The notes under the pieces were generated by a model. It saw only the letters and a list, made by a program, of their open reading frames with translations, was not told where the DNA came from and searched no databases. Below are positions 24,927-39,435 of a stretch of 64,000 bases of DNA, piece by piece (position 1 is the stretch's first letter; each line of letters begins with the position of its first letter). The DNA is from an uncultured Gemmatimonadota bacterium (lineage in GTDB: Bacteria; JAAXHH01). The stretch covers positions 2,560,001 through 2,624,000 of the forward strand of contig OX638340.1 in assembly GCA_951812955.1 (NCBI GenBank), given 5' to 3'. The position numbers and the translations under genes were made by a program.

Positions 24927-25712
24927 CTATCGGTCCTTCCGCAGGAATCCAAGTTCTTGCACCGCCCGCCGAAACCCGTCCTTCAAGACCGGCTCATCGC
25001 CGCCAACGAGAAGCAGACGCACACCTTCTTCTATCTGGCGGCGAACGTTCTCCTCGTCATCTGGTGAGCCGAGCAGGGGGTGTCCCACGGGCTTTCCCGT
25101 TCGCTGGCCGGCTTCCCGCACGCGGCGGAGCGCGTCGAGGTACTTTGGATGGTCGAACCGGAATGGAACTCCGAGGGAAATACACAGGTCCACCGGACCC
25201 ACGATACAGCCATCCACCCCCTCCACGGCCATGATGTCGTCGATGCGCTCGACGGCTTCGGCCGACTCGATTATCGGGAGATAGACCACGACGTCATCGA
25301 TCCCGGCGGTGTATTCCTCTTCAAACAACCCGTATCCCGCGGCTCGGTGCGGTCCCCACCCCCGCGTGCCCCGCGGAGGATAGCGGCAGGCGTCCGCCCC
25401 CAGCTTCGCCTCTTCCGGGGTGTTCACGAAGGGGACGACAATTCCCACTGCGCCCATGTCGAGGTATAATTTGATCAGGTCGGGATCGGTACGGGTAATC
25501 CGAACTATCGGCGCGGCTGGCGTACAGCCCGCCGCCTGGATCTGGGCCTGCACGGTAACCGGCGTTTGCGGCGCGTGCTCCGTGTCGATCAGGATCCAGT
25601 CGAAACCGGCCAGTCCGGCCAGTTCCGCGATGGCGGGGGATCCGAATCGAAGCTGTATGCCGAAGGCGGGCTTGCCTTCGGCCATCAGGTTCTTGAGGTG
25701 GCTGTGAATCAT
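24927..25712 (-). CDS. HpcH/HpaI family aldolase (2-keto-3-deoxy acid aldolase or citrate-lyase beta-like fold)
   Basis: Family-typical blocks GIQLRFGSPAIAELAGLAGFDWILIDTEHAP and RYPPRGTRGWGP. Confidence 0.7.
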   Translation of the reverse strand: MIHSHLKNLMAEGKPAFGIQLRFGSPAIAELAGLAGFDWILIDTEHAPQTPVTVQAQIQAAGCTPAAPIVRITRTDPDLIKLYLDMGAVGIVVPFVNTPEEAKLGADACRYPPRGTRGWGPHRAAGYGLFEEEYTAGIDDVVVYLPIIESAEAVERIDDIMAVEGVDGCIVGPVDLCISLGVPFRFDHPKYLDALRRVREAGQRTGKPVGHPLLGSPDDEENVRRQIEEGVRLLLVGGDEPVLKDGFRRAVQELGFLRKDR

Positions 25713-25725
25713 GGATCGTCTGCGG

Positions 25726-26520
25726 TCATGTCCTGGTCACGTCCTGGTAGAATCCCAGCTCGAAGAGGCGGTCGAGCCATCGCTGCCGTTTTGGCCTGCC
25801 ATCGGGATTGGCAAGCCAGTACGGATCGACCAGGGGATCGCCGGGTCGGTTGTACTTGGCTGTGGCCTTGCCGTTGTTCGCCCCCTGCTCGCGCGTGGTC
25901 TCGACTTCCTCCGGCGTCCTCGGATTGTTGTAGTACACGCAAGTGCACATGCGCCGGTCGCTGGATCCTCCGTAACTCGCATGCCACAACCGGAGGTCGA
26001 ATCCCACTACGTCGCCCGGTTCCGATACGCAGACATGTGACGGCACTTCCGCGACGGACAGGCCCAGACCGGGCATCACCTTTCTCAGTTCGCCATGGTA
26101 AGGATTTTGGTGCGAACCCGGGATGACGCGCAGCGCGCCGGTCTCCGGTCCCACGGGTTGGAGGTAGAAGGCGAACTTGATGCCGTACTGGTGGATACTG
26201 TGTGTATCCGGATGCCATCCCGTGTTGCCGACGTAACGGTTGGCGTCGGTCGCGATCCCCAGCGCATCTTCGCCGTAGAGCTGTTCGGCGACACCACATA
26301 ACCGGGGATCTTCCATGAGACTCGCGAAGAAGGGCGTGGATTTCCCCATCATCGTGACCCAGTGCCGGACCGAGCCGTCGAAAGGCAGGTGACGGTAAGC
26401 CATTTCCAGCCCGTGGTCGAACTCCCCGTTGATCTGGTCCAGTTCGTCCGGCGTGAAGACCTGGCGCAAGACGACAAAACCAAATGTCTTATAGTGTTGA
26501 TATTGTTGTTCGGTCAACAT
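25726..26520 (-). CDS. phytanoyl-CoA dioxygenase (PhyH) family Fe(II)/2-oxoglutarate oxygenase
   Basis: PhyH-like N-terminal block LTEQQYQHYKTFGFVVLRQVFTPDELDQI, HxD...H facial triad candidates (HPDTH ... PGSHQ). Confidence 0.65.
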   Translation of the reverse strand: MLTEQQYQHYKTFGFVVLRQVFTPDELDQINGEFDHGLEMAYRHLPFDGSVRHWVTMMGKSTPFFASLMEDPRLCGVAEQLYGEDALGIATDANRYVGNTGWHPDTHSIHQYGIKFAFYLQPVGPETGALRVIPGSHQNPYHGELRKVMPGLGLSVAEVPSHVCVSEPGDVVGFDLRLWHASYGGSSDRRMCTCVYYNNPRTPEEVETTREQGANNGKATAKYNRPGDPLVDPYWLANPDGRPKRQRWLDRLFELGFYQDVTRT

Positions 26521-26554
26521 GCCGGGCTCCCCTCCATCTCCAGGTTGAAGCGTG

Positions 26555-27271
26555 TCATATGCGGCGCAGCAGGCGCTGCAGGCGCAGCCACCAGACGATC
26601 CATACCGCCTCGTTGATCACGCCCTGGGAGAGTTTCGATGTGCCTGATCGCCGGTCTACGAAGATAATGGGGATTTCACGCAGGCGATATCCCTTTCGCC
26701 AGCACCGGAAATTCATCTCGATCTGGAAGGCGTATCCGTCGGACCGGACTTCATCCAGCTCGATGTGTTCCAATACTTCGCGGCGGAAGCACTTGTATCC
26801 GCTGGTGGTGTCCCGGATCGTCATCCCCGTGACCAGTCGAGTGTAAATGTTGGCGAAGTAGCTGAGCAGTAACCGGGACATGGGCCAGTTTACCACGTTG
26901 ATGCCGCTGATGTACCGGGATCCGATCACCACGTCGCAGGACGCGATCTCTTCGATGAACCGCGGAACCATGGCGGGATCGTGGGAAAAGTCCGCGTCCA
27001 TCTCGAATACGCAGTCCACGTCCTGTTGGATAGCGTACCTGAAACCCGCAACGTAAGCCGATCCGAGTCCGAGTTTGCCGGGTCGATGCAGGACGCTGAT
27101 CCGTTCATTCTCCGCGGCAAGTTCATCGGCCAGTTTCCCCGTCCCGTCCGGCGAGTTGTCATCCACCACGAGCACGCGGATATCCGGACTCAATGCCATT
27201 AACTCGGGCAAAAGCCGGCGGATGTTCTCGAGCTCGTTGTAGGTGGGGACGATGATCAGGGTTTTCATCAT
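26555..27271 (-). CDS. GT2 family polyprenol-phosphate sugar synthase (Dpm1/ArnC/GtrB-like)
   Basis: IIVPTYNELENI...VLVVDDNSPDGT...ISVLHRPGKLGLGSAY, the DxD-containing Dpm1-like signature; 238 aa. Confidence 0.8.
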   Translation of the reverse strand: MMKTLIIVPTYNELENIRRLLPELMALSPDIRVLVVDDNSPDGTGKLADELAAENERISVLHRPGKLGLGSAYVAGFRYAIQQDVDCVFEMDADFSHDPAMVPRFIEEIASCDVVIGSRYISGINVVNWPMSRLLLSYFANIYTRLVTGMTIRDTTSGYKCFRREVLEHIELDEVRSDGYAFQIEMNFRCWRKGYRLREIPIIFVDRRSGTSKLSQGVINEAVWIVWWLRLQRLLRRI

Positions 27272-27286
27272 TTTACGGTTCCGGTG

Positions 27287-29746
27287 TCAGGCCCGGGCCT
27301 TCAGGCGTTTTCTGATGTGCATCGCACCCGCTGAAATCAACCCGGCGAGGATCAGTGCGCTGGCGATCCGGCTTATCAGGAGGCCCGTGGCGAAGGAAGC
27401 GGGGGCGAAAGTCATCACCACGTCATGACGGCCTTCGGGTACGGCCACGGAGCGAAGGACGTAGTTGGTCTTGTGTATTTCCGCCGGCTGGCCGTCAATC
27501 TCGGCGCTCCATCCTGCCGGATAATAGATCTCGCTGAGCACCAGCAAACAAGATGAGGCCGCATCCACTGCCATCTCGATACGGTGCGGTGAGTGCAGGG
27601 TGATCTCCACGGACGAGTCGCCCGCCGGACCGAGCCGTTCCTGGAGAGGTTCTTCCACGATTGCGTATTTGCCGGGATTGAACCCCGGGTCGCTCAGCGC
27701 TTCGAAGATGGCGTCCTTCCCGGCAATGACGCGCACACTGTCCACCAGGAAGGCCCGCGGCAGCGCGTCGTCGTTCCGATACAGGTATCCACCGTCGGTT
27801 TCGGCCACGGGTGCGAGCGCGGCTTCAGGGAGCGGCTGTCGAGACACCAGGTAACGGGTATTCAGCATGTTCAGAACCGGAAAGGAACTGAGTCCCACCT
27901 GGTCCATGAGTTCCTGGTAGATGCCCAACTTGGCGGCGTGGTAGCCGCCAATACTGGATATCCCGAAGTATCCGTATTCATTCGAAGAGAACTCGGAGAG
28001 CGGCAGGATGCGGTACAGGCTTGTGTCGTCTTCCAGGGCTTTCACAATTTCGTTGTCTCGGGCGGTGTAATAGGCTTCGATCCGCGCGGGATCATCTTGG
28101 GGGTTCACGATCCGCGAGGCCACGAGCGATAGATCGATGGAGACGAGTATGCATACGCCCGCGGCAAACAGTGACGGGCTCATCTTTCGGGTGGCGAAAA
28201 GCAGCGCCGCAGCCGCGCAGAGGAACAATGCCATGGTCCACAGATCGCCCATGAACAGGTCGAATCGCATGGCGTTGAGCCTGGCATGGTAGTCCACGTT
28301 GTCCAGGAGGGCCGCGCGCGAACCATGGGCCGCATCCGCCTGCGAATAGACGCCCGTCATGAAGGACTGGAAGGAGGACTCGAATACGGTCAGTACCAGG
28401 ACCAGCAGGAGGACTCCGCCGGCTACGCAGCACAGTTTTTTCGCGAAGCTCCCCAGGCTGTCCCGGCCGGCACGTATCCGTTCGATCACCGCGTGCACGC
28501 CGTATCCCGCCAGCAGGGCTGCCGCGAACTGCAGGATCACCAGGATCATGACCGGCGCGCGGAACTTGCCGAAGAAGGGGACGAAGTGGAGCATGACGTA
28601 GGACAGGGGAGGCAGGTGCCGTCCGAAGGAGACCAGAAGGGCCAGCACGGCCGCCAGGACGAGAAACAGGGTCATGCGCGAACTTCGCAGCAAGAAGCCC
28701 GCCAGGGCCAGGACAACGACGACGACGCCCAGGTAGTTCGGGAAATCCGTGAAGGGCATTTCTCCCCAGTAGAAGAGACCGCCGAACCCGGCGAAGGAAG
28801 GGATGATGAAGGTCAGTACTTCGATGGGAGGGAACGACCAGCTCGTGGCGAAGGGGACGTTGACGCCGCTACCGCCGACTGAGAGGCCCCGAGCGGAATA
28901 CTGCGCGTATTCCTGCATGGGAAAGACCAGCACCGCCGCGACGGCGACGGCCAGGACGATACCGCCCACAAAGAGACCGGATTTTCGCAGTATCTCGCGT
29001 GCAGGAGTCCTGTCCCTCCATTCATTGATTACGGCGTATGCGGCGTACAGGCCGATCAGCATGGCCGTGTAGAAGGCGATCTGGGGATGAAAGGAACACA
29101 ACTGCGAGCCGAACGCGCCTCCGAGCAATACCATGTCGAACACCCCGCCGCGATCAAATACGCGGTAGGCTGCCAGGAAGACGAGGGGGACATGCATGAA
29201 GCAGATGAACCGGTTCGCGTGTTCCGTGGCCATCATGTGGGTGGAAAACACGAAGGCCGCCGCCGCGACGAAAGACGCGGGCCTGGAGAGCGACAAGGTT
29301 CGCGCCAGAAGAAACATGGAAACCGCGCCGAGGAGCAGGTGGAAGAAGAAACGGCCGTGCAGCGCGCTGACGAGCCGGTCCGGCAGGACGGCATTGACCA
29401 GGGCTTCGTAGCTGTATTGTAGATGGTGGTACGTGCCGCTGGCCTGGAAGGGCATGCCGCCGAAGATGTGGGGGTACCAGAGGGGCGTTTCGCCGGATCC
29501 GCTTTTAAAGTCCTGCGCGAAGCGGTCGAAGGGAATGGCCTGGCCAATGAAATCGGGCCTGATGTCCATCTTCCCGTCGATGATATAGCCGCGGTACACG
29601 AATACGGCCAGCACCGCGATGATCAGGCAGAACAGGGCGTCCTGGACCAACGGATGCAGGCTTCGGTCCGCGCGCTCCCGACGGCTATCGTCCCGTCCGC
29701 GGATTCGGCGCTGTTCAGATCGTGGTGGGTTTCGCTGCTTCGCCAT
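27287..29746 (-). CDS. large polytopic membrane protein, YfhO-like GT-C family glycosyltransferase candidate
   Basis: 819 aa; more than 12 predicted TM helices in the first ~520 aa plus a ~300-aa C-terminal soluble domain; adjacent to a Dpm1-like GT2, as in CsbB/YfhO, ArnC/ArnT and GtrB/GtrC pairs. Confidence 0.5.
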   Translation of the reverse strand: MAKQRNPPRSEQRRIRGRDDSRRERADRSLHPLVQDALFCLIIAVLAVFVYRGYIIDGKMDIRPDFIGQAIPFDRFAQDFKSGSGETPLWYPHIFGGMPFQASGTYHHLQYSYEALVNAVLPDRLVSALHGRFFFHLLLGAVSMFLLARTLSLSRPASFVAAAAFVFSTHMMATEHANRFICFMHVPLVFLAAYRVFDRGGVFDMVLLGGAFGSQLCSFHPQIAFYTAMLIGLYAAYAVINEWRDRTPAREILRKSGLFVGGIVLAVAVAAVLVFPMQEYAQYSARGLSVGGSGVNVPFATSWSFPPIEVLTFIIPSFAGFGGLFYWGEMPFTDFPNYLGVVVVVLALAGFLLRSSRMTLFLVLAAVLALLVSFGRHLPPLSYVMLHFVPFFGKFRAPVMILVILQFAAALLAGYGVHAVIERIRAGRDSLGSFAKKLCCVAGGVLLLVLVLTVFESSFQSFMTGVYSQADAAHGSRAALLDNVDYHARLNAMRFDLFMGDLWTMALFLCAAAALLFATRKMSPSLFAAGVCILVSIDLSLVASRIVNPQDDPARIEAYYTARDNEIVKALEDDTSLYRILPLSEFSSNEYGYFGISSIGGYHAAKLGIYQELMDQVGLSSFPVLNMLNTRYLVSRQPLPEAALAPVAETDGGYLYRNDDALPRAFLVDSVRVIAGKDAIFEALSDPGFNPGKYAIVEEPLQERLGPAGDSSVEITLHSPHRIEMAVDAASSCLLVLSEIYYPAGWSAEIDGQPAEIHKTNYVLRSVAVPEGRHDVVMTFAPASFATGLLISRIASALILAGLISAGAMHIRKRLKARA

Positions 29747-29878
29747 GAATATCCTTTAGCGGACTGTTTCTGCGCTTCGCAATGAATACCCTATAACGGC
29801 CTGTTGCTGCGATATGAATGGCGGGAACATCCGATTAAATCAATCGATTAAAGCAAACGGTAAATTCTGCTGGTTAAA

Positions 29879-30802
29879 TCAACGAGTATTCGAGGTGATC
29901 GGGGTAGCGAAGCCTTCCCAAATCCCTCGATGGAGCGCGCCCAGGTGGCCCCACCTGCGACGGATGACCAAGATAGCCGCCGACCGAAGATAACGATACA
30001 GAAAAAGGTAAGGCAGGAACGCGAACAGAAACTGCGGAAGCGGCACGTGTTTTCTCGCAAACAGAATCCTGCTGCGTATCATGTGACGCATATAGAATGG
30101 ACTGTTGAAACCGGCCGTCCGTGACCCCTTGTGGTGGACAACGGCCTTTGGCTCCAAAAGCAATCTATATCCGGCTTCCCGCACCTTCATTCCCCAGTCG
30201 AAGTCGTCGAAATAGCAAAAATAATCTTCGTCCATCAGTCCGACCTTCTCCAGGACAGCGCGCTTGACGAGGAGTGCAGTTCCCGTGATGTACGGCATCT
30301 CGGTCGAGGAATCGAACTGCCCCCTGTCCTCTTCCCCGTGACCCAGAAGAAACCCCTGCGCCAGCCACGGGATGGTGCGTGTACCTGCCGAGTCGAGCAC
30401 GCGTTCCTCTCCATACTTGTAGATCTTCGGTCCGGCCATGCCTATATCGCTGGAGCGTTCCGCCGCTCGAACAAGGTTGGCCAATACGTCTGGCTCCACG
30501 ACGGTGTCGTTGTTCAGCAGGAACACGTAATCGGCGTCTTTTGAAAGGGCATGGCGCATGCCCTGGTTGCTACCACGGACGAATCCCCTGTTTTCGGCGT
30601 TACGAATCAGCGTCAAAGGGAGGTTTTCACGCCCCCACCGCTCGATGGCATCAGGCGAGCCGTCTGTCGATCCATTGTCCACAACAATGACCGAAAAGGA
30701 CGGGTAGTCTATACGCGCCAGTGATTCGAGGCACTCCAGCGTATCCGCTTCCCGGTTCCAGTTGAGTATGACGATGGCGACGTGGGGAAGTGATAGACTC
30801 AT
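29879..30802 (-). CDS. GT2 family glycosyltransferase
   Basis: VAIVILNWNREADTLECLESL...VIVVDNGSTDGS...DYVFLLNNDTVV GT2 motifs; 307 aa. Confidence 0.75.
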   Translation of the reverse strand: MSLSLPHVAIVILNWNREADTLECLESLARIDYPSFSVIVVDNGSTDGSPDAIERWGRENLPLTLIRNAENRGFVRGSNQGMRHALSKDADYVFLLNNDTVVEPDVLANLVRAAERSSDIGMAGPKIYKYGEERVLDSAGTRTIPWLAQGFLLGHGEEDRGQFDSSTEMPYITGTALLVKRAVLEKVGLMDEDYFCYFDDFDWGMKVREAGYRLLLEPKAVVHHKGSRTAGFNSPFYMRHMIRSRILFARKHVPLPQFLFAFLPYLFLYRYLRSAAILVIRRRWGHLGALHRGIWEGFATPITSNTR

Positions 30803-30811
30803 AATCCAGGT

Positions 30812-32275
30812 TCAATCCGATGATTGGTGCGGAATGCCCAACTTCCTAATCCAGCCGCGAACGTATTCCTTCTCCGGCTGATCCAGCAACCGGAACGCGT
30901 ACCAGAGGTAGAGCGCCATACCCAGAATCACCAGGGCGACGCTGACCTCGATCCGATCGAAGGTCCACCTGGCCGCGCCGAAGGAGGCTGCTGAAAGGAC
31001 GATCAGGAGAATGTAGGGTTTCCAGGGGAAAAGCCGTCCTACGGTCGTGTCGAGCAGCCGGGCGTACCGGCCCAGATAGTAGATCCATCCGGCGGCGGTT
31101 CCGCACAGGGTGGCGAGTGCCGCGCCCCAGAGGCCGAAGGCCTTGATGAAGACCAGGTTGCCCGCGACGTTGACGATCAGCATGGCGGTCGCTGCCTGGA
31201 CGATGATCGCGTTGCGGTTCAGGGCCCTCGCGAGGACGTCCGGACTGTTGAAGCGGAGCAGGAGGAGCAGCGCGTAGATGCCCAGGACCCGGTGGCCCTC
31301 GAAGTAGGCGTCGGGCAGGATGATGCGGTACAGCACGTCGGAGAAGAGAAAGACGAAGATCCCCGCCGGTATGATGGCGATCATGCCGCAGGTCGAGCAC
31401 TTGTGCCACAGGGCCGCCATGGACGGATGGTCGCCGCCTTCGGCGTACCCCACGTAGGTGGAAAAGAGCACCGACCCGAACACGCTCATCAGGATGCCGG
31501 CGATGGGCAGTTCGATGGCCGATACGCTGTAGATCGCGAAGCTGGATGCGCCCAGGAAGGCGCTGATCATGATCTTGTCCAGGCTCCCGTTGACGAACGG
31601 AATGAACCCGGCGATACCCAGTCCCAGGGCGTAACGGTACTGGCCCTTGTTGTCGATACTCCGCACCCGGAAGGACAGCAGCTTCCTGTTGAGCAGGACG
31701 AGTCCGTAGAGTAGGGACTGAAAGGCCTCCAGGAGCACGATCAGGACGATGAGTTCGAAAACGGCCGTAATCAGCCCCGAAAACAGCGCGCCGGCGATGG
31801 CCGCGATGCGCAGCAGGTACTGAAACACGCGAAGACCGCTGGCCGCGGCGGTGTGTTCAGTCCCCACCAGGGCGTTGTGTGCGGCCATGTTTACGAATAA
31901 AAACAGGGCGATCAGGAGATAGGCGCCGATCTCCCGTAGATAGGGTCCCAGTTCCGTGTGAACGAGCAGGTAGGGCTTGATGAGAAGATGGAACAGCAGG
32001 AGGAGGGCCAGGAAGATCACCGCACAACTGGCCAGCGTGTTTCCCACGTATCTGCGTGCGTCCGCCGCGTATTTCCCCGATATGAAGTAGAAGACGCTCT
32101 CGATCAGCCCGGCGGCGAACAGGTACGCGAATCCGGCGGTCAGAATGCCGTACCTGTAAGGCGCCAGGTATTCCGGATCGAAGAAATGGGCGACGACGAT
32201 CGACTGGAGTACCTGGAGCGCGCTCGCACCGAGCAGCGCGGTATAGAGTATGACCGCCGCGTTTCGTTTAGACAT
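30812..32275 (-). CDS. polysaccharide/oligosaccharide flippase, MOP superfamily (Wzx-like)
   Basis: 487 aa with about 12-14 hydrophobic segments; Wzx-like N-terminal organization; operon context with GT genes. Confidence 0.6.
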   Translation of the reverse strand: MSKRNAAVILYTALLGASALQVLQSIVVAHFFDPEYLAPYRYGILTAGFAYLFAAGLIESVFYFISGKYAADARRYVGNTLASCAVIFLALLLLFHLLIKPYLLVHTELGPYLREIGAYLLIALFLFVNMAAHNALVGTEHTAAASGLRVFQYLLRIAAIAGALFSGLITAVFELIVLIVLLEAFQSLLYGLVLLNRKLLSFRVRSIDNKGQYRYALGLGIAGFIPFVNGSLDKIMISAFLGASSFAIYSVSAIELPIAGILMSVFGSVLFSTYVGYAEGGDHPSMAALWHKCSTCGMIAIIPAGIFVFLFSDVLYRIILPDAYFEGHRVLGIYALLLLLRFNSPDVLARALNRNAIIVQAATAMLIVNVAGNLVFIKAFGLWGAALATLCGTAAGWIYYLGRYARLLDTTVGRLFPWKPYILLIVLSAASFGAARWTFDRIEVSVALVILGMALYLWYAFRLLDQPEKEYVRGWIRKLGIPHQSSD

Positions 32276-32313: not shown

Positions 32314-33696
32314 TCAGACCCCGTCCCTCAGTATCTCCGCGACGGCGGCGACGGCGCGGTCCGCCTCGTCGAGCGTGTTATAGATATGTGGGGAAAGCCG
32401 GACGTTGGGCCCCATGCCCGCGCCGGCCACATGGTACGTGTCGTAGAGCTTTGCGAAGACCTTGCGCGGGTCGAGATCACCTGGTTTGAAGATGACCACG
32501 CCGCCGGAGAGCGCGGGGTCCATGGACGTGGAGAGTGTCACGCCGGGCAGTTCGGTAAGGCCTTCCTTGATGGCCGTGGCCACCTGCCGCATGCGGGCCT
32601 CCACGCGGTCCGGTCCGATCTTCTCGTGGAAATCGACCCCCCGGCCCGTGGCCGTCAGCGCGGCGTCGTCCCGCTGGCCGAGAACTTCGTACTTTCGGGC
32701 GCTATCCACGTCGTCCCGCCATCCGGCGCTCACGATACTGGGCCAGACGGCGTCCTGGCTGTCTTTCCGGACGTACAGCACGCCGACTTCCTTAGGCCCC
32801 ATGAACCACTTGTGGGCGCTTCCGGAGTACGCGTCGCAGCCCATGTCGGCGAGATCGATCTTCAGGGCCCCGAAACTCTGGGCGCCGTCGACGAGGGAAA
32901 ACACGCCCCGTTCCCGCGCCGTCGCACAGAGCTGCCTGGCCGGCATGGAAAGTCCCGTCGTGTTGGACACGTGGGTGAAGGACATCACCTTCGTCGCCGG
33001 GGTGTACGCCCGTTCGAAGGCATCGATGATTTCGTCCTCGCCGCCTGGAATCAAGGGAACCGACACGTAGTTGATCTTAAATCCGTAACGTCTGGACTTG
33101 ACCTCCCACGCCGATTTGTTCGAGGGATGGTTCAGGTCGGACAGGAGCACCTCGTCACCCGTCTGGAGGTGGTAACCGGAACTGATGGCGTTGTTGGCTT
33201 CGCTCGTGTTCCGCACCAGTGCGATTTCATCGGGATGAGCACCCAGGAGCCGCGCCATCTTCTCGCGGGTATCCTCCCGGATCTGCCGGTATTTGATCCT
33301 GTTCTGGAAGGACGCGTCGTAATCCAGGTCGCGGGTATACTTGAAGACCGCTTCCATCACGGGAAAGGGTGACGGGCAAAGGTTGGCGGCGTTCATCAGG
33401 GCCAGGTTGTCCCGGAGGAGGAACTGGTTCCGGACCGCGTGCCAGTACCGTTCGTCGCCGGGGTCTGTGCCGGAGACGGCCGTGTCCAGGTCCTGTGGAG
33501 GCGAAGCGGCGGTGGAGGTGCCGTAACCGGCGACGAGGGCGCCGCCCGCGGCGATACCGCCGGCCAGCCGTTTCATGAACGATCGGCGGGATTCCTGCCA
33601 CGCCGACTCTGGAATACTCTCGATTTTCAATTCGTCCTGGATCATCCTTAAGCCTCCGGATGTGAGGGATAGGGACGCCGCGGAGCGGGATCCCAT
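32314..33696 (-). CDS. class V (fold type I) PLP-dependent aminotransferase/desulfurase-like enzyme with predicted Tat signal peptide
   Basis: Twin-arginine motif SRRSFMKRLAGGIAAGGALVAG near the N-terminus; PLP-lysine motif SGSAHKWFMGP; isopenicillin-N-epimerase/cysteine desulfurase-like blocks. Confidence 0.65.
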   Translation of the reverse strand: MGSRSAASLSLTSGGLRMIQDELKIESIPESAWQESRRSFMKRLAGGIAAGGALVAGYGTSTAASPPQDLDTAVSGTDPGDERYWHAVRNQFLLRDNLALMNAANLCPSPFPVMEAVFKYTRDLDYDASFQNRIKYRQIREDTREKMARLLGAHPDEIALVRNTSEANNAISSGYHLQTGDEVLLSDLNHPSNKSAWEVKSRRYGFKINYVSVPLIPGGEDEIIDAFERAYTPATKVMSFTHVSNTTGLSMPARQLCATARERGVFSLVDGAQSFGALKIDLADMGCDAYSGSAHKWFMGPKEVGVLYVRKDSQDAVWPSIVSAGWRDDVDSARKYEVLGQRDDAALTATGRGVDFHEKIGPDRVEARMRQVATAIKEGLTELPGVTLSTSMDPALSGGVVIFKPGDLDPRKVFAKLYDTYHVAGAGMGPNVRLSPHIYNTLDEADRAVAAVAEILRDGV

Positions 33697-33714
33697 CGCT
33701 AGAAATCCACTTGG

Positions 33715-34572
33715 CTAGAAATCCACCGCAATTCCGAGGTGGGCTGTAATGAGATCGGTGGTCGACTTGGTTATGTTGAGTTCGGCCGTACCCGACCTGC
33801 GGACGATGTCGCCCCGCTTCAGGTAGTCGGCCTCGGACCCGTCATGGTAGCGCATCCTGACATCCAGGGATACGGACCGCACGGTGCGGTTCTGCGACGT
33901 CCGGTCTTCGCCGGCTCCCCACACCTCGATCAGCACCCCGCCGCCCACACCCTTGGTAAATGCGAAATCATCGAGGTTCGTGGAACTGGCGATCTCCTCT
34001 CCGCTGAGACGGGGAAGGTTCTCGATCGCCGTACTCGTGAAAAGGTAGTGGAAGCCCACGACGCCTTCTACGTAGAAACGCAGTGGGGCGGTGGTACCGG
34101 TCATCAGACGAAGAAAGGCGTTCATCGAAAAGATGTTGTTCTCGGTGACCACGTCGACGAGGACGTCGGGGATGGTAAGGCTGAATTGCTCGGTGCGCCG
34201 CTCGTGGCCGTAGATCATGTAACCCAGGTCTAGGCCAATCACGGCCGGTGTACGGGGGATTATGTAGCCCACGAACCCGGACACGCCGATCCCCGGGTTC
34301 TTGACATTGTCGCCGAATTCGCCCGTCGGAAATCCGCCGAGGATGCCGATCCCGGTGATAACGACGGGGGGCACGTCCGCGGTTTCCCCTTCCTGCGCGT
34401 TGGCCGGCGCCGGACGCGCCAGGAGTACCAGTCCGACAAGGGCCGCTATGAACGTGGGATAGGTTGCGCGTCGAGTTATTCGGCTAAATATCCGGCGGAA
34501 AATGCGCTGCATTGGGAAGGTGTGTATTCGAGGTTGTGATTTATGCATGGCAGTTCGGGCCTTCCTGATCAA
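33715..34572 (-). CDS. putative outer-membrane beta-barrel protein; start uncertain
   Basis: Signal peptide ending ...LLARPAPANAQ, alternating amphipathic beta-strands, C-terminal ...GIAVDF aromatic terminus typical of OMPs. Confidence 0.35.
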   Translation of the reverse strand: MIRKARTAMHKSQPRIHTFPMQRIFRRIFSRITRRATYPTFIAALVGLVLLARPAPANAQEGETADVPPVVITGIGILGGFPTGEFGDNVKNPGIGVSGFVGYIIPRTPAVIGLDLGYMIYGHERRTEQFSLTIPDVLVDVVTENNIFSMNAFLRLMTGTTAPLRFYVEGVVGFHYLFTSTAIENLPRLSGEEIASSTNLDDFAFTKGVGGGVLIEVWGAGEDRTSQNRTVRSVSLDVRMRYHDGSEADYLKRGDIVRRSGTAELNITKSTTDLITAHLGIAVDF

Positions 34573-35998: not shown

Positions 35999-37474
35999 TC
36001 AGATGCCCCGATTTCCCGCTAACCATTTCATCAGGCCTTCAGCGGGCAATTCGGATTTCAGGATGGGCGTCCGTACGCCCTGGGTCCGCAGCAGGGCTTC
36101 GGCGCCCTGGTAACCGCTGCGCACCGCGCTTTCCATGGTAGCCGGCCAGCCCGTCTGTACCCAGTCGCCGGCGAGGAAGAAATTGGAAAGGGGACTGGAT
36201 GGACCGGGGCGCAGTGCGTCGCAACCGGGGTTGGGCGCGAACGTCGCCCTGCCCTCCTTGACGACGATGGCCTTGAGCAGTTCTGCCTGGCGTACGGCGG
36301 GCAGCAGGGACCTGAGATCTTCCATGGCCTGATCGATGATCATCTGTCGCGGCATTTTCATCCATTCATCGGAAGCACTGACTACGAGTCCGAGATAGGC
36401 TCCGTCGTTTTCCATGGCGTTGGTCCCGTCGTTTTCCACGGAGTTGGCTCCGGAGTGCCGATTGGACTGGTTGAATATCCACTGTATCCTCCTTCCGATC
36501 ACCGCGGCGTAGTCCAGTTCCGTCACGGGCCGGTCGAACCAGACGTGGACGGCCGTGATGGGAGAAACCGACAGCCCGGCAAGCATCGCGAAGTAGGGAT
36601 TCGAGGCTTGGCTTTGCGGCAGCAGCCGGCACAAAACATCGAATGGCAGGGCCGAAAGGTATGCCCCGGCCTCGACGGTCGAACCGTCCTGCAGCGAGAT
36701 GGAAGCCACCTTGCCGCCGTGGACGGCAATGCCGGTAACGCCCCGGTTGAACACGACGCGGCCGCCCCGCCGTTCGATGTAATCTATGCACGGCGCGTAC
36801 AGGTCTCCCAGCGGAACGGCGGGCAGCCCCACCTCGTACCCTCGGCGATTGATCAGAAAGGCCCGAACGGCCGTCCCGATTCCGTAATCGGCATCGATGT
36901 CGTCCAGTTCATCGTTGAGCGCACTGATTAGAAAGGGTTTCCAGAAGGCTTCGATGGCCCGCTTCGTTGCGCCGTGGGCTAGAAGCCAGGCAGACATGGA
37001 AACCGGAGACGGTGCTTCGGCGGCCTGATGTGTTTCCGGATAGCCGGTATTCCGTGATCTCATGACGTGGCGGACCATGCCGGCCACGGTGCGGACGATC
37101 GACAGCTTGTCCCGGATTCCCATCGTTTTAAGCCGGAGGAACGATGGAAGCAGGTGCAGGGGCGCGGGGAGACCCGAGGGCCCGATGACCGAAACGCGGT
37201 TGGACTCGTCGATGAATGGAATGGTCTCGTGAAAGTCGATATGGTTCGCGACGCCGAGACGGTCGTAGAAGTCCAGGAGGTTAACACAGCAGCCCAGGAG
37301 CACGTGCTGGCAGTTGTCCACCCGCTCGCCGCTTGACGGGTGTATGAAGGAGGTGGCGCGGCCGCCCAGGATTGGACGTCTTTCGTACAGTTCGACCTCG
37401 AAACCGGCATCGGCCAGCGCAACCGCGCCGGCCAGTCCAGCCAGCCCGCCACCGATTACGATTACCTGGCTCAT
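35999..37474 (-). CDS. hpnE: hydroxysqualene dehydroxylase (FAD-dependent amine-oxidase fold); start at MSQVIVIGGG, overlapping the hpnD stop by 4 nt
   Basis: FAD dinucleotide-binding VIVIGGGLAGLAGAVALADAGFEVELYERRPILGGRA; phytoene-desaturase-like length; directly downstream of two squalene/phytoene-synthase-family genes. Confidence 0.7.
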   Translation of the reverse strand: MSQVIVIGGGLAGLAGAVALADAGFEVELYERRPILGGRATSFIHPSSGERVDNCQHVLLGCCVNLLDFYDRLGVANHIDFHETIPFIDESNRVSVIGPSGLPAPLHLLPSFLRLKTMGIRDKLSIVRTVAGMVRHVMRSRNTGYPETHQAAEAPSPVSMSAWLLAHGATKRAIEAFWKPFLISALNDELDDIDADYGIGTAVRAFLINRRGYEVGLPAVPLGDLYAPCIDYIERRGGRVVFNRGVTGIAVHGGKVASISLQDGSTVEAGAYLSALPFDVLCRLLPQSQASNPYFAMLAGLSVSPITAVHVWFDRPVTELDYAAVIGRRIQWIFNQSNRHSGANSVENDGTNAMENDGAYLGLVVSASDEWMKMPRQMIIDQAMEDLRSLLPAVRQAELLKAIVVKEGRATFAPNPGCDALRPGPSSPLSNFFLAGDWVQTGWPATMESAVRSGYQGAEALLRTQGVRTPILKSELPAEGLMKWLAGNRGI

Positions 37475-38406
37475 ACGCGCTTTCGGATCAGCGCCCGGGC
37501 CGTGATGGAGATTTTCTTCCATGGGGACAGGCCGATGCGCTGGCTATACACGTCGTACTGGCGACGGGGGATTTCTTCAAGGCACGCCCGGTAGATGCCG
37601 ATCATGGCCGCCAGACACGCCCTGCTTGAGAACTGAACCTTCGGAAGGAGCGGCAGCGCTGCGTCGTAGTAGCTTCTGGCGCGTTCCACCTGGAATTCCA
37701 TCAGTCGCCGGAACGAATCGTCTAAAAGTCCGTTCCGCAGACGTTCCTCCGGGTACCCGAAGGCGTCAAGGTCCTCCTGCGGCAGGTAGATACGGCCCAT
37801 CCCCGCGTCCTCCCTCAGGTCGCGCAGTATATTTGTCAGCTGAAAGGCGATGCCACAGGACTCGGCGTGTTTTTTGGCTTCCGCGCCATTGAATCCGAAG
37901 ATGTGTATGCACACCAGTCCGACGGCGGAAGCCACGCGGTAGCAGTACTGGTAAAGTTCTTCGAAGGTGGCGTAACGCGTCACCGTAAGGTCCATTTGCG
38001 CGCCGTCGATAATGGCGTCGAAGTACGCTCTCGGGATGTCGTATCTCCCCACCGTGTCCCTGAATGCCGGCAACAGCCCGCGGACGTCGGGCGGTGTTTC
38101 GCCATAGGCGTCGGCCGGTGGTCCGTCATATGCGTCGGGCGGTGGTCCGTCATAGGCGCGGTCCAGGGACTCGCGGCAGGCGTTCAACCGGTTTTCCTTG
38201 TCCGCCTCCCCGGCCTCCTCGTCGACGATGTCGTCGCAGTAGCGCATGAAGGCGTACACGGCGCACATGGCCCGTCGCCGTTCAGCCGGCAGGACGATAA
38301 AGGAATAGTAGAAGTTCTTAGCCCTCGATTTCGCGATTTCGCGGCAGAAATCATAGGAGCGCTTCAACGATTCCGGATCGGCAGATTGTTTTTTCACAGG
38401 GTTCAT
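37471..38406 (-). CDS. hpnD: presqualene diphosphate synthase (squalene/phytoene synthase family) with an in-frame proline-rich insertion
   Basis: Trans-isoprenyl diphosphate synthase head-to-head motifs (YSFIVLPAERRRAMCAVYAFMRYCDDIVDE, second Asp-rich motif). Insertion AYDGPPPDAYDGPPADAYGETPPDV. Confidence 0.75.
   Translation of the reverse strand: MNPVKKQSADPESLKRSYDFCREIAKSRAKNFYYSFIVLPAERRRAMCAVYAFMRYCDDIVDEEAGEADKENRLNACRESLDRAYDGPPPDAYDGPPADAYGETPPDVRGLLPAFRDTVGRYDIPRAYFDAIIDGAQMDLTVTRYATFEELYQYCYRVASAVGLVCIHIFGFNGAEAKKHAESCGIAFQLTNILRDLREDAGMGRIYLPQEDLDAFGYPEERLRNGLLDDSFRRLMEFQVERARSYYDAALPLLPKVQFSSRACLAAMIGIYRACLEEIPRRQYDVYSQRIGLSPWKKISITARALIRKRV
38086..38157. repeat. 24-nt tandem repeat x3 inside hpnD (gtcggccggtggtccgtcatatgc and variants) encoding a DAYDGPP(P/A) repeat on the minus strand
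   Basis: Direct reading. Confidence 0.85.
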
Positions 38407-38475
38407 GACAACGGCGTTCCATCGTTACGTACAACGAGCACGGTTCGACGAGTACGGTTCGACGCGCACGACCCA

Positions 38476-39435
38476 CTAAGGGGTCGCGGACGGTCCGGTC
38501 CGGTTCCAGATCCGTTTCAGTGCGTATTTCACAAACAGGCTGGTCTTTCGGGCGGGCGACAGGGTGGGCCGACTGGACAGCACGTCGTAACGCCGTCTTT
38601 CGATCTGGTCGAGCAGGGCGGAGCCACAGCGGTTGAACAGTTCGATGTCCAGCCGGACCCGCCCGTCCAACATCCCGCACAACCCGAGCCCCTCATCGAA
38701 CAGCGCTCGCGTCCTGTTCACCTGGTACGCCATCAGTCTCCTGAAACGCTCGTCGACGACCCCGGCCTCGAGGTCCGCCTCGGTGTAATGGTACCGATCC
38801 AGGTCCTCCTGGGGCAAGTAGATCCTGCCTTTTTCCAGGTCCACCCTGACGTCCTGCCAGAAGTTGGCCAGCTGGAGCGCGGTACACGTAGCGTCGGAAA
38901 GGACCTGGCGTTCATTGTCCCGGTGGCCGCACAGGTAGAGCACGAGGTGGCCCACCGGATTGGCGGAGTACCGACAGTATTCGAGCACATCCGCGTAGGT
39001 CCTGTAACGCGTTACGACCTGGTCTTGCCGGAACGCGGTCAGCAAGTCTCGAAACGGGGTTATGGGTATCTCGAATCGGTCGATCGTCTCCCGGAGGGCG
39101 ATGAATACCGGATGCCGGGCGCTACCGTCGTAACAGGCCTGCAACTCGGCGTCCCACCAATCGAGCAGTTCCAGGGAAAGGCCGGTATCGCCGGTTTCGT
39201 CGGCGAGGTCGTCGGACCACCGGCAGTAGGCGTAGACATGGTAGAAGTGCTGCCGCAGCGCGGTGGGCAGGAACCGGGAAACGACAATGAAATTCTCGTA
39301 GTGCTGGCGTGCGAGGTGGCTGCAGTACCGGGTAGCGGACGCCAGGGAGGCGTCGCCGGCGCCGGGCAGCGCGTCGAGGGCGAGGTGATCGAACCGGCGC
39401 ATGGCTTCAGGCAGGTAGTCGGGTAGCTGGGACAT
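38476..39435 (-). CDS. hpnC: hydroxysqualene synthase (squalene/phytoene synthase family)
   Basis: ENFIVVSRFLPTALRQHFYHVYAYCRWSDDLADE and downstream Asp-rich motif; 319 aa; first gene of the hpnCDE trio. Confidence 0.75.
   Translation of the reverse strand: MSQLPDYLPEAMRRFDHLALDALPGAGDASLASATRYCSHLARQHYENFIVVSRFLPTALRQHFYHVYAYCRWSDDLADETGDTGLSLELLDWWDAELQACYDGSARHPVFIALRETIDRFEIPITPFRDLLTAFRQDQVVTRYRTYADVLEYCRYSANPVGHLVLYLCGHRDNERQVLSDATCTALQLANFWQDVRVDLEKGRIYLPQEDLDRYHYTEADLEAGVVDERFRRLMAYQVNRTRALFDEGLGLCGMLDGRVRLDIELFNRCGSALLDQIERRRYDVLSSRPTLSPARKTSLFVKYALKRIWNRTGPSATP

Follow-up and report, generated by a model that had tools for sequence, protein, structure and literature searches.

A PvdN-like class V PLP enzyme with a conserved, predicted Tat signal in an uncultured Gemmatimonadota bacterium

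PLP chemistry is usually regarded as cytoplasmic. PvdN of Pseudomonas aeruginosa (PA2394; PDB 5i90/5hh9) is a periplasmic PLP enzyme involved in pyoverdine tailoring. Other enzymes of the same fold family are found in the cytoplasm. For instance, the SufS/CsdB proteins are cytoplasmic and have a catalytic Cys loop (HHC or QHC), and the cystine lyase C-DES and the hercynylcysteine sulfoxide lyases EgtE/Egt2 are cytoplasmic proteins that have neither a Tat signal nor a persulfide-forming Cys. By contrast, PvdN and PtaA have been shown experimentally to be Tat-exported with PLP bound, and the PLP-lysine mutant of PvdN is not exported; PtaA has been described as a “normal” PLP transaminase (PMC6206403). 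The signal peptides of PvdN and PA2531 (PtaA) have also been validated by experiment (PMC6085387). A literature search for characterised Tat-exported class V enzymes besides PvdN returned nothing relevant.

In the stretch of DNA analysed here (64,000 nucleotides, hereafter the window) there is a gene that, with a probability that we would place at about 0.72, encodes a PvdN-like enzyme of class V fold (SufS/PvdN subgroup) that works in the periplasm. The gene, which encodes a precursor of 443 residues, is located on the minus strand at 32314..33645 (stop codon 32314-32316), as supported by the list of open reading frames, Pfam and an identical (100%) database protein, P0001, that is also 443 residues long. 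An earlier, sequence-only reading of this DNA had placed the gene at 32314-33696. There is indeed an open reading frame at these positions, on the minus strand (which that reading left unstated), but the gene does not start there: the true start is almost certainly ATG 33645, which opens MIQDELK... and lies 51 nt inside the 460-residue frame, and not ATG 33696. The Shine-Dalgarno sequence that can be read before it, GGAGG, is at 33653..33657 (minus strand), 7 nt upstream of the ATG, and 12 relatives keep both the start and this sequence as a cc/tGGAGG box 6-8 nt before the start. In the relatives, residues 8-26 are kept at the protein level while their codons show synonymous changes, and only about 33 nt separate the end of the upstream gene from the ATG equivalent to 33645, so that ATG 33696 has no counterpart in them. 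The 460-residue reading, which has no Shine-Dalgarno sequence and is not conserved, was consequently rejected.

From its sequence, the gene product belongs to the fold-type-I, class V PLP enzymes, as had already been recognised from the SGSAHKW motif. The Pfam family PF00266 (Aminotran_5) matches residues 117-400 with an E value of 3.8e-47 (161.5 bits vs a cut-off of 21.5 bits). The PLP-lysine motif, S274-G-S-A-H-K279-W280, is read from the sequence at 32806..32826 (minus strand; Lys279 codon 32809-32811) and aligns with S-x-H-K of SufS and T-H-K of PvdN. Both K279 and D253, the Asp contacting the PLP ring nitrogen, are invariant in 99 homologues and match their equivalents in SufS and PvdN. 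The alignments also show D253-G-A-Q256, S276 and R416 to be invariant, and H278 nearly so, and 49 positions of the enzyme stay invariant across phyla. A subfamily motif, N85-A-A-N-L-C90 (followed by P-S-P; 33376..33393, minus strand), is found near the N-terminus of the fold, where it aligns with the “SAATSQKP” region of SufS. Residues N85, N88, L89, C90, P91 and P93 do not vary among 99 sequences; the motif has no counterpart in the aligned PvdN and SufS sequences and occurs only in the closer representatives. The predicted mature enzyme would comprise residues 47-443 (32317..33507, minus strand), with the folded domain beginning at about W68. In the AF2 model (mean pLDDT 89, pTM 0.88), confidence is low over residues 1-60 and high from about residue 65, and the best fold match in the PDB (Foldseek) is PvdN (5i90; TM 0.88, rmsd 2.7 Å).

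The first 46 residues (33508..33645, minus strand) form a predicted Tat signal peptide with a putative cleavage site at its end: its n-region is long, its h-region, which comes after the RR motif, is rich in Gly and Ala, and its c-region is T-A-A; the N-terminus reads ...ESAWQESRRSFMKRLAGGIAAGGALVAGYGTSTAAS, followed by PPQD. The twin-arginine motif, S19-R20-R21-S22-F23-M24-K25 (33571..33591, minus strand), fits the Tat consensus S/T-R-R-x-F-L-K, and R20 and R21 are invariant in two alignments. It is followed by some 25 uncharged residues, with a mean Kyte-Doolittle value of 1.06 and no segment of transmembrane grade, and then by the A-x-A-like T-A-A site. At the equivalent position, orthologues have AFA before S, ASA before S or AHA before A, the target having T-A-A before S. 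Curated models of such signals give a mixed picture: PF10518 (TAT_signal, with a cut-off of 22.7 bits) gives no score on the target and 23.9 and 21.3 bits on two homologues, and the TAT-region model TIGR02811 weakly matches residues 16-47 of the target (E 0.008). Within the window, an N-terminal motif of this type is present only in the open reading frame of the PLP enzyme.

The conservation of this motif extends well beyond the close relatives. At 48% identity or more, RR is present in 117 of 120 homologues, the three exceptions being N-truncated gene calls, and at 79 of 80 species-level genome loci, the lone exception being cut by a contig end. The consensus at these 79 loci is (S/T)-R-R-x-F-(L/M)-(K/R). 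RR is found in 97, and RK in three, of 107 full-length representatives at 30-50% identity, and almost all of the 150 best cluster representatives, drawn from 909 clusters (E <= 1e-30), have RR, down to 30% identity. Additionally, in about nine distant relatives the RR h-region is followed by a lipobox Cys, which independently supports an extracytoplasmic location of the family. The conserved twin-arginine signal indicates that the enzyme probably works outside the cytoplasm, and that the predicted export signal is probably genuine. The sequence-only reading is upheld in describing a twin-arginine signal, and the N-terminal extension that it suggested comparing is retained, together with RR, by the orthologues. 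By contrast, its remark that Tat export is uncommon for such an enzyme was overstated, given the precedents of PvdN and PtaA and the frequency of RR among the best clusters.

Like the target, PvdN has a class V fold and an N-terminal twin-arginine signal that is followed by a short linker. In both proteins this linker leads to a homologous helix, W-x-x-(L/V)-(R/K)-x-Q-F, the PLP lysine is found in (S/T)-H-K-W and the catalytic-Cys loop of SufS is absent. A profile of the target family scores 187 bits on PvdN vs 170 and 155 bits on SufS proteins. However, the PLP-binding residues of the target are more SufS-like than PvdN-like, as DGAQ and HVSN are kept where PvdN has DGVH and WVQS. Likewise, NAANLCPSP in the target corresponds to FANFLLTSHP in PvdN, and the invariant NAANLCPSP and GQRDD motifs of the target family are family-specific with respect to PvdN. 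The raw distances from the target are similar for both groups (0.77 to SufS vs 0.80 to PvdN). In a crude NJ tree rooted on two SufS proteins, PvdN is placed inside the Tat-bearing set, a placement that we do not rely on because the distances are saturated (0.75-0.85). PtaA (PA2531, periplasmic transaminase A, from pseudomonads) can be likened to the target by description, as a functional analogue: it is a PLP enzyme that is Tat-exported in a folded state with its cofactor.

The SufS/CsdB proteins (6wci, 5j8q, 1i29) have the fold in common with the target (TM about 0.8), together with D-G-A/S-Q, H-V-S-N, S-x-H-K and the Arg of the C-terminal R-x-S-x-x-Y-N motif. Their persulfide-accepting Cys loop (“gHHCAqplmkw” or “gqhCAHpll”) aligns as an insertion against the family profile, just as it does against PvdN, and the target has no Cys downstream of Lys279. 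The deletion of this loop implies that the target would not be a canonical cysteine desulfurase, so that desulfurase activity, which had been one of the options suggested for this gene, is unlikely. Enzymes without a persulfide-forming Cys are known in the same fold family. C-DES (1elq) and Egt2 are reached by the family profile at 1.6e-32 and 5e-22, respectively, with scores under those of PvdN and SufS, and TIGR04343 matches the target at 3.7e-23. The existence of such Cys-less lyases indicates that the scaffold supports PLP-regenerating C-S lyase chemistry. As for isopenicillin-N epimerase, a name that the automatic annotation of JGI gives to some homologues, no curated CefD model was found among the NCBIfam matches and no solved CefD among the PDB matches.

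The gene is part of a minus-strand string that runs from 35901 to 24927 with short gaps or small overlaps between genes, and whose products are, in order, XylTIM-like, GNAT, OMP-like, the PLP enzyme, a polytopic membrane protein, GT2, YfhO, GT2, PhyH and HpcH. The sole promoter-like site of the string is upstream of it (35985-35957), and no terminator-like site was found in any of its intergenic gaps. The upstream neighbour (33715..34572, minus strand) encodes an outer-membrane beta-barrel-like protein of 285 residues, which starts with a Sec-type signal and ends in ...VDF. This gene is probably co-transcribed with that of the PLP enzyme and is lineage-specific, adjoining it only in eight relatives of at least 84% identity. 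The downstream neighbour (30812..32275, minus strand), separated by a 38-nt gap, encodes a polytopic membrane protein of 487 residues with 12-13 hydrophobic segments. It heads a GT2/YfhO/GT2 glycosylation module that reaches down to 26555, and adjoins the PLP enzyme gene only in relatives with 72% identity or more. As no match to either neighbour was found in Pfam, NCBIfam or the PDB, their names are descriptive; “flippase-like”, for instance, was given to the 487-residue protein from its size and context only. The genes between 19.5 and 46.5 kb of the window include those for ATP synthase beta, a methyltransferase, an aldolase, PhyH, GT2, YfhO, GNAT, HpnCDE, RibB and a STAND NTPase.

The neighbourhood was surveyed in three ways: 20 window proteins were searched against 84 loci by tblastn, 2378 neighbouring open reading frames were clustered de novo, and 123 immediate neighbours were scanned with Pfam. 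Down to 72% identity, 8-9 relatives show the same gene order, and L009 is one of them despite other changes in its flanks. At 63-68% identity the neighbours differ (e.g., an amidohydrolase and a squalene-hopene cyclase), and at 45-55% identity the 123 immediate neighbours match 118 Pfam families, none of them more than five times. No conserved neighbour was found across the 80 loci, the synteny being lineage-specific only. Some neighbours recur weakly (AdoHcy hydrolase, class I/II aminotransferase and CBS, five times each; GCS2 and RidA, three times each), too few times to be of use, and those recurring clusters that were traced come mainly from related Longimicrobiales/Gemmatimonadota genomes. 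HpnC/D/E are encoded 2.3 kb upstream of the PLP enzyme gene, and a squalene-hopene cyclase gene is located 107 nt downstream of a homologue of 67% identity. A link to hopanoids, which is seen in two lineages only, was not adopted.

The tight same-strand string without terminators makes a cluster-linked role possible in the target's own lineage. In this regard, the sequence-only reading had proposed that the enzyme modifies an amino acid or amino sugar on an envelope polymer, which here would be the product of the adjacent polyprenyl-P-sugar synthase/flippase-like/YfhO module. The single promoter-like site and the order kept down to 72% identity are consistent with such periplasmic tailoring. 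However, the adjacency on which this proposal was built is kept only in those 8-9 close relatives, as it has gone at 63-68% identity and in all relatives at 45-55%, and the invariant positions shared across phyla argue for a common substrate instead. Furthermore, sugar aminotransferases belong to the DegT family and not to class V, and the invariant Arg416 suggests a substrate with an alpha-carboxylate. We therefore regard a role in envelope-polymer tailoring as unlikely. A different possibility is that the enzyme works outside the cytoplasm but keeps its signal, which would tether it through the h-region to the periplasmic side of the inner membrane. The imperfect A-x-A of T-A-A, with a proline at +2/+3, would be in line with this variant of the preferred reading, and some relatives are predicted Tat lipoproteins, so that membrane tethering does occur in the family. 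The h-region, however, is poor in strongly hydrophobic residues and its hydropathy is under transmembrane grade, and close orthologues have cleaner A-x-A sites, as described above, which makes an uncleaved signal quite improbable.

The remaining readings concern what the protein is and whether it is exported at all. A true orthologue of PvdN would act in siderophore tailoring, converting an N-terminal gamma-linked glutamate to succinamide. PvdN is the best match of the target in NCBIfam (NF051467, aligned over positions 3-422 of 425, signal included), among PDB sequences (phmmer, 5i90 at 4e-35) and among PDB folds, and the Tat signal and the missing Cys loop are common to both, but the NF051467 score, 153.4 bits, does not reach the equivalog cut-off of 650 bits and identity to PvdN is only 27%. 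The active-site motifs also differ (DGAQ vs DGVH; NAANLCPSP vs FANFLLTSHP), and the target is outside the pvdMNO/NRPS context of PvdN, as no PvdM, PvdO, PvdP-like or NRPS gene was found among the window genes at 19.5-46.5 kb. Moreover, PvdN is hosted by pseudomonads, whereas the target family is found in MAGs of Gemmatimonadota, Acidobacteriota, Latescibacterota and Rhodothermales. Orthology to PvdN is thus very improbable, and the same can be said of a canonical SufS/CsdA-type cysteine desulfurase or selenocysteine lyase, cytoplasmic or exported. Several homologues carry the JGI name “selenocysteine lyase/cysteine desulfurase”, SufS-like PLP-binding residues are retained and TIGR01979 (sufS) matches at 3e-41; yet its 141.5 bits do not reach the cut-off of 475.1 bits, the catalytic Cys loop is deleted, no SufE, SufU or SufBCD gene was found among the neighbouring window genes and a Tat signal that is conserved speaks against an Fe-S role in the cytoplasm. 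Finally, RR might not be an export signal, either because it is fortuitous or because translation starts downstream of it, at the in-frame ATG 33576 (M24), leaving a cytoplasmic protein. The database gene call P0028 begins at M24 and the Pfam TAT_signal model leaves the target unscored, but there is no Shine-Dalgarno sequence before 33576, the conserved GGAGG precedes 33645 instead, residues 8-26 are conserved as protein while their DNA changes synonymously, and RR-x-F-L-K is kept across phyla down to 30% identity. The start at M24, which would delete RR, was consequently rejected; a start downstream of RR had been named beforehand by the sequence-only reading as the observation that would speak against a signal peptide, and ATG 33645 precedes RR. 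It is thus highly improbable, more so than any of the readings above, that RR is not a signal.

The preferred reading, that of a PvdN-like enzyme working in the periplasm, can be developed into a tentative mechanism. As the conserved start and Shine-Dalgarno sequence show, translation begins at ATG 33645. The protein would then fold, bind PLP at Lys279 and most likely dimerise, all in the cytoplasm, as suggested by its fold family and by the requirement of the PLP lysine for the export of PvdN. The S-R-R-S-F-M-K signal, conserved throughout the family, would bring the folded holo-enzyme to the Tat translocase, and would probably be cut after T-A-A46. Once in the periplasm, the enzyme could form an external aldimine with a free alpha-amino group, belonging either to an L-amino acid or to the amino-acid part of an exported metabolite, while Arg416 would hold the alpha-carboxylate. 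This residue aligns with the SufS Arg of the C-terminal R-A-S-x-x-Y-N motif, which, together with its invariance, points to an alpha-amino-acid substrate rather than to the amino sugar that had been offered as an alternative. Without the Cys loop of SufS, canonical cysteine desulfurase action would be impossible. The likeliest chemistry may be one in which PLP is regenerated without a second substrate, i.e., lyase/elimination or PvdN-type decarboxylation, and not transamination. In any case, the strong cross-phylum conservation and the lack of a conserved operon partner suggest a stand-alone enzyme that would act on a common periplasmic substrate, and not in cluster-specific tailoring.

The target is a member of a large and widespread family, and Tat-exported PLP enzymes have a known precedent in Pseudomonas PvdN. 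The family comprises hundreds of 50%-identity clusters, and its hosts include Gemmatimonadota, Acidobacteriota, Latescibacterota, Zixibacteria and Rhodothermales. The arrangement of a Tat signal with a PLP enzyme is a conserved hallmark of this large uncharacterised family in abundant environmental phyla. For its annotation, “Tat-exported PvdN-like PLP enzyme” would be a better name than cysteine desulfurase, selenocysteine lyase or isopenicillin-N epimerase. More speculatively, the target may be part of a clade of Tat-exported class V enzymes that spans phyla, is marked by NAANLCPSP and GQRDD and by the lack of a conserved operon partner, and carries out an undescribed periplasmic PLP reaction. 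The substrate of such a clade could be a common extracytoplasmic amino acid compound, e.g., cystine, some other S-conjugate, or a lipid or peptide that bears an amino acid. If this tentative view were true, PvdN would be one specialised offshoot of a far larger family of periplasmic PLP enzymes. The family, more than this single gene by itself, is a reasonable target for enzyme discovery, and finding its substrate would define a periplasmic amino-acid transformation and provide a second characterised member beside PvdN.

The minus-strand ORF delimited by the sequence-only reading (32314-33696) does encode the PLP enzyme proposed there: its product matches the Pfam family Aminotran_5 (E 3.8e-47), as expected for a class V architecture, and contains SGSAHKW, the PLP lysine (Lys279) being codon 32809-32811. 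That reading did not give the strand, and its start must be moved. The first ATG, at 33696, was the start adopted there, but the true start is almost certainly the ATG at 33645, which has a GGAGG box 7 nt upstream and is shared, together with this SD, by 12 relatives. Codons 8-26 (IESIPESAWQ.SRRSFMKR) are also kept among relatives, where the DNA differences are synonymous, and a database protein identical to this one has 443 aa. In relatives, the upstream gene ends about 33 nt before the equivalent of ATG 33645 and, consequently, ATG 33696 has no counterpart. The spurious ATG context at 33696 arises from a small tandem duplication (33698-33726, minus strand) that was not found in the relatives examined: the 13-nt GTGGATTTCTAGC spans the final codons and stop of the preceding gene, and its second copy lies 16 nt downstream, within the spacer 5′ of the PLP gene. 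Initiation at the internal ATG (M24) would remove the twin arginine, but no SD precedes that codon. Thus, the objection foreseen in the sequence-only reading, a start downstream of the RR, does not hold, as the conserved start and its SD lie before it.

The N-terminus of the protein reads MIQDELKIESIPESAWQESRRSFMKRLAGGIAAGGALVAGYGTSTAASPPQD. Its S-R-R-S-F-M-K fits the Tat consensus S/T-R-R-x-F-L-K and is followed by about 25 uncharged, Gly/Ala-rich residues, whose mean Kyte-Doolittle hydropathy (1.06) is below transmembrane grade, and by a T-A-A/S site that is replaced at the same place in close orthologues by AFA/S, ASA/S or AHA/A. No other ORF in the 64-kb window has an N-terminally placed motif of this type. 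The AlphaFold2 model has low confidence over residues 1-60, as would be expected for a signal peptide and linker. The n-region before the RR (33589-33624, minus strand; residues 8-19; I-E-S-I-P-E-S-A-W-Q-x-S) has moderate confidence (pLDDT about 75) and is unusually strongly conserved: it is seen throughout the Gemmatimonadota clade and also in certain proteins of 50% identity (e.g., LPESAWRVSRR or ISESCWQVPRR), while it is short in other family members. It could serve as a chaperone or proofreading contact.

Orthologues lacking the N-terminal extension were sought, and the extension proved to be kept. Among the 120 best homologues (48-100% identity), 117 have RR-x-F-L, and the other three are N-terminally truncated gene calls. 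In a second sample, separate from the protein collection and formed by 80 loci with the family motif in species-representative genomes, 79 have an in-frame RR upstream of that motif (the remaining locus is truncated where its contig ends), and their sequence logo reads (S/T)-R-R-x-F-(L/M)-(K/R). Additionally, when 1.84 billion cluster representatives were searched exhaustively with HMMER, 909 clusters matched at E ≤ 1e-30; among the 107 full-length proteins of the best 150 of these (30-50% identity), 97 have RR and 3 have R-K variants. A lipobox Cys follows the RR h-region in approximately nine of these representatives, for instance directly in P0139, P0174, P0189, P0200, P0221, P0239 and P0241 (30-43% identity), so these distant members are predicted to be Tat-dependent lipoproteins, which would place the family outside the cytoplasm independently of the RR evidence. 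The twin-arginine signal noticed originally is therefore upheld, and the protein is predicted from its sequence to be a Tat-exported class V PLP enzyme.

Such export had been considered uncommon, but this was overstated. PvdN, a PLP enzyme of the same fold, is exported folded by Tat, and its PLP lysine is required for transport competence; PtaA is a second PLP enzyme using this route (pyoverdine review, PMC6206403), and both signal peptides have been validated experimentally (PMC6085387). Thus, an enzyme of this very fold already offers a direct, characterised example of the phenomenon. The nearest known protein by every method used is PvdN, the periplasmic pyoverdine-tailoring enzyme. Its model, NF051467, is the top NCBIfam match (positions 3-422 of 425 aligned), and PvdN structures (5i90/5hh9) are the top PDB match of the single protein (4e-35) and exceed SufS proteins with the family profile (187 bits versus 170 and 155). 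The AlphaFold2 model (mean pLDDT 89, pTM 0.88) also matches 5i90 best (TM 0.88, rmsd 2.7 Å, 27% identity), followed by many SufS structures with TM of about 0.8. Nevertheless, we do not consider the protein a PvdN orthologue: it scores 153 bits against an equivalog cut-off of 650, and no pyoverdine genes were found in its neighbourhood. Moreover, PvdN has DGVH and WVQS at the PLP contacts, whereas this enzyme has the SufS-like DGAQ and HVSN, and it is further set apart by two invariant motifs, NAANLCPSP and GQRDD.

A desulfurase activity, one of those suggested originally, is unlikely. In profile alignments, both this family and PvdN lack the loop that carries the catalytic Cys of SufS (HHC in B. 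subtilis, QHC in S. maltophilia), which aligns as an insertion; moreover, no Cys follows Lys279, and the score with TIGR01979 is 141 bits (cut-off 475), all of which argues against a canonical cysteine desulfurase. In SufS, the Arg of the C-terminal R-A-S-x-x-Y-N motif holds the substrate carboxylate; the invariant Arg416 aligns with it, which points to an alpha-amino acid as the substrate. We propose that the protein takes up its PLP in the cytoplasm, where it probably also dimerises, and that Tat would then carry it out folded, with the signal cut near residue 46. Its periplasmic target would be an amino acid, or a metabolite carrying one, attacked at the end where the alpha-amino and alpha-carboxylate groups are free. 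As the weakest step of this scheme, chemistry in which every cycle restores PLP (elimination/lyase or PvdN-type decarboxylation) would be favoured over transamination, because a periplasmic supply of keto-acid co-substrate is not evident.

The gene lies in a same-strand string with short gaps or small overlaps, where no intergenic terminators were found and the sole promoter-like site precedes the TIM-barrel gene. In minus-strand order, it is preceded by HpnC, HpnD and HpnE, a xylose-isomerase-like TIM barrel protein, a GNAT acetyltransferase and an OMP-like ORF. The first three (35999-39435, 2.3 kb upstream) form a complete squalene-synthesis trio (NCBIfam scores of 342, 284 and 429 bits, above cut-offs of 250, 278.6 and 283). 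The OMP-like ORF (33715-34572, minus strand; 285 aa) starts with a Sec-type signal (…FIAALVGLVLLARPAPANA/QE), ends in …GIAVDF, typical for an outer-membrane beta-barrel, has no family match, and is directly upstream of the PLP gene in relatives whose identity is 84% or higher. Farther away, a 917-aa protein (40351-43104, plus strand) combining a winged-helix DNA-binding domain (OmpR/PhoB-type, Trans_reg_C) with an nSTAND1 NTPase is conserved in five relatives (88% identity). After the PLP gene come a 487-aa polytopic membrane protein without Pfam, NCBIfam or PDB match, a GT2, YfhO (a GT-C-type transferase with a PgfM1-like C-terminus), a small GT2 resembling polyprenyl-P-sugar synthases (AglJ/PpgS/PgfS/ArnC; all scores below threshold), a PhyH dioxygenase and an HpcH-family aldolase. 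These genes (24927-32275, minus strand) possibly form an extracytoplasmic glycosylation module, a description that fits better than the roughly right "glycan-export cluster".

The association with this module is shallow. It extends to 8-9 relatives with identities of 72% or higher, but those of 63-68% have different neighbours, with an amidohydrolase upstream and a squalene-hopene cyclase downstream (107 nt from the 67%-identity homologue; locus L001, 9439-11187). Two lineages thus have hopanoid genes close to this PLP gene, which may be a coincidence. At 45-55% identity, across several phyla, 123 immediate neighbours belong to 118 Pfam families, each seen at most five times. In a 9.5-Mb genome (locus L004, 7150-14372), the 51%-identity homologue has four ATP-grasp genes of the RimK type and an MFS transporter around it, a context that, unlike that of the window, suggests peptide or amino-acid ligation. 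By contrast, the enzyme itself has 49 invariant positions across 99 sequences. Since the enzyme is conserved while its partners change, a stand-alone activity on some widespread substrate seems more likely than a function dependent on this glycan cluster; the envelope-polymer role envisaged originally is unsupported beyond lineage-specific adjacency. The enzyme joins the PvdN-like Tat-exported PLP enzymes within a large, functionally uncharacterised subfamily and, as a target for enzyme discovery, the family matters more than this single gene.
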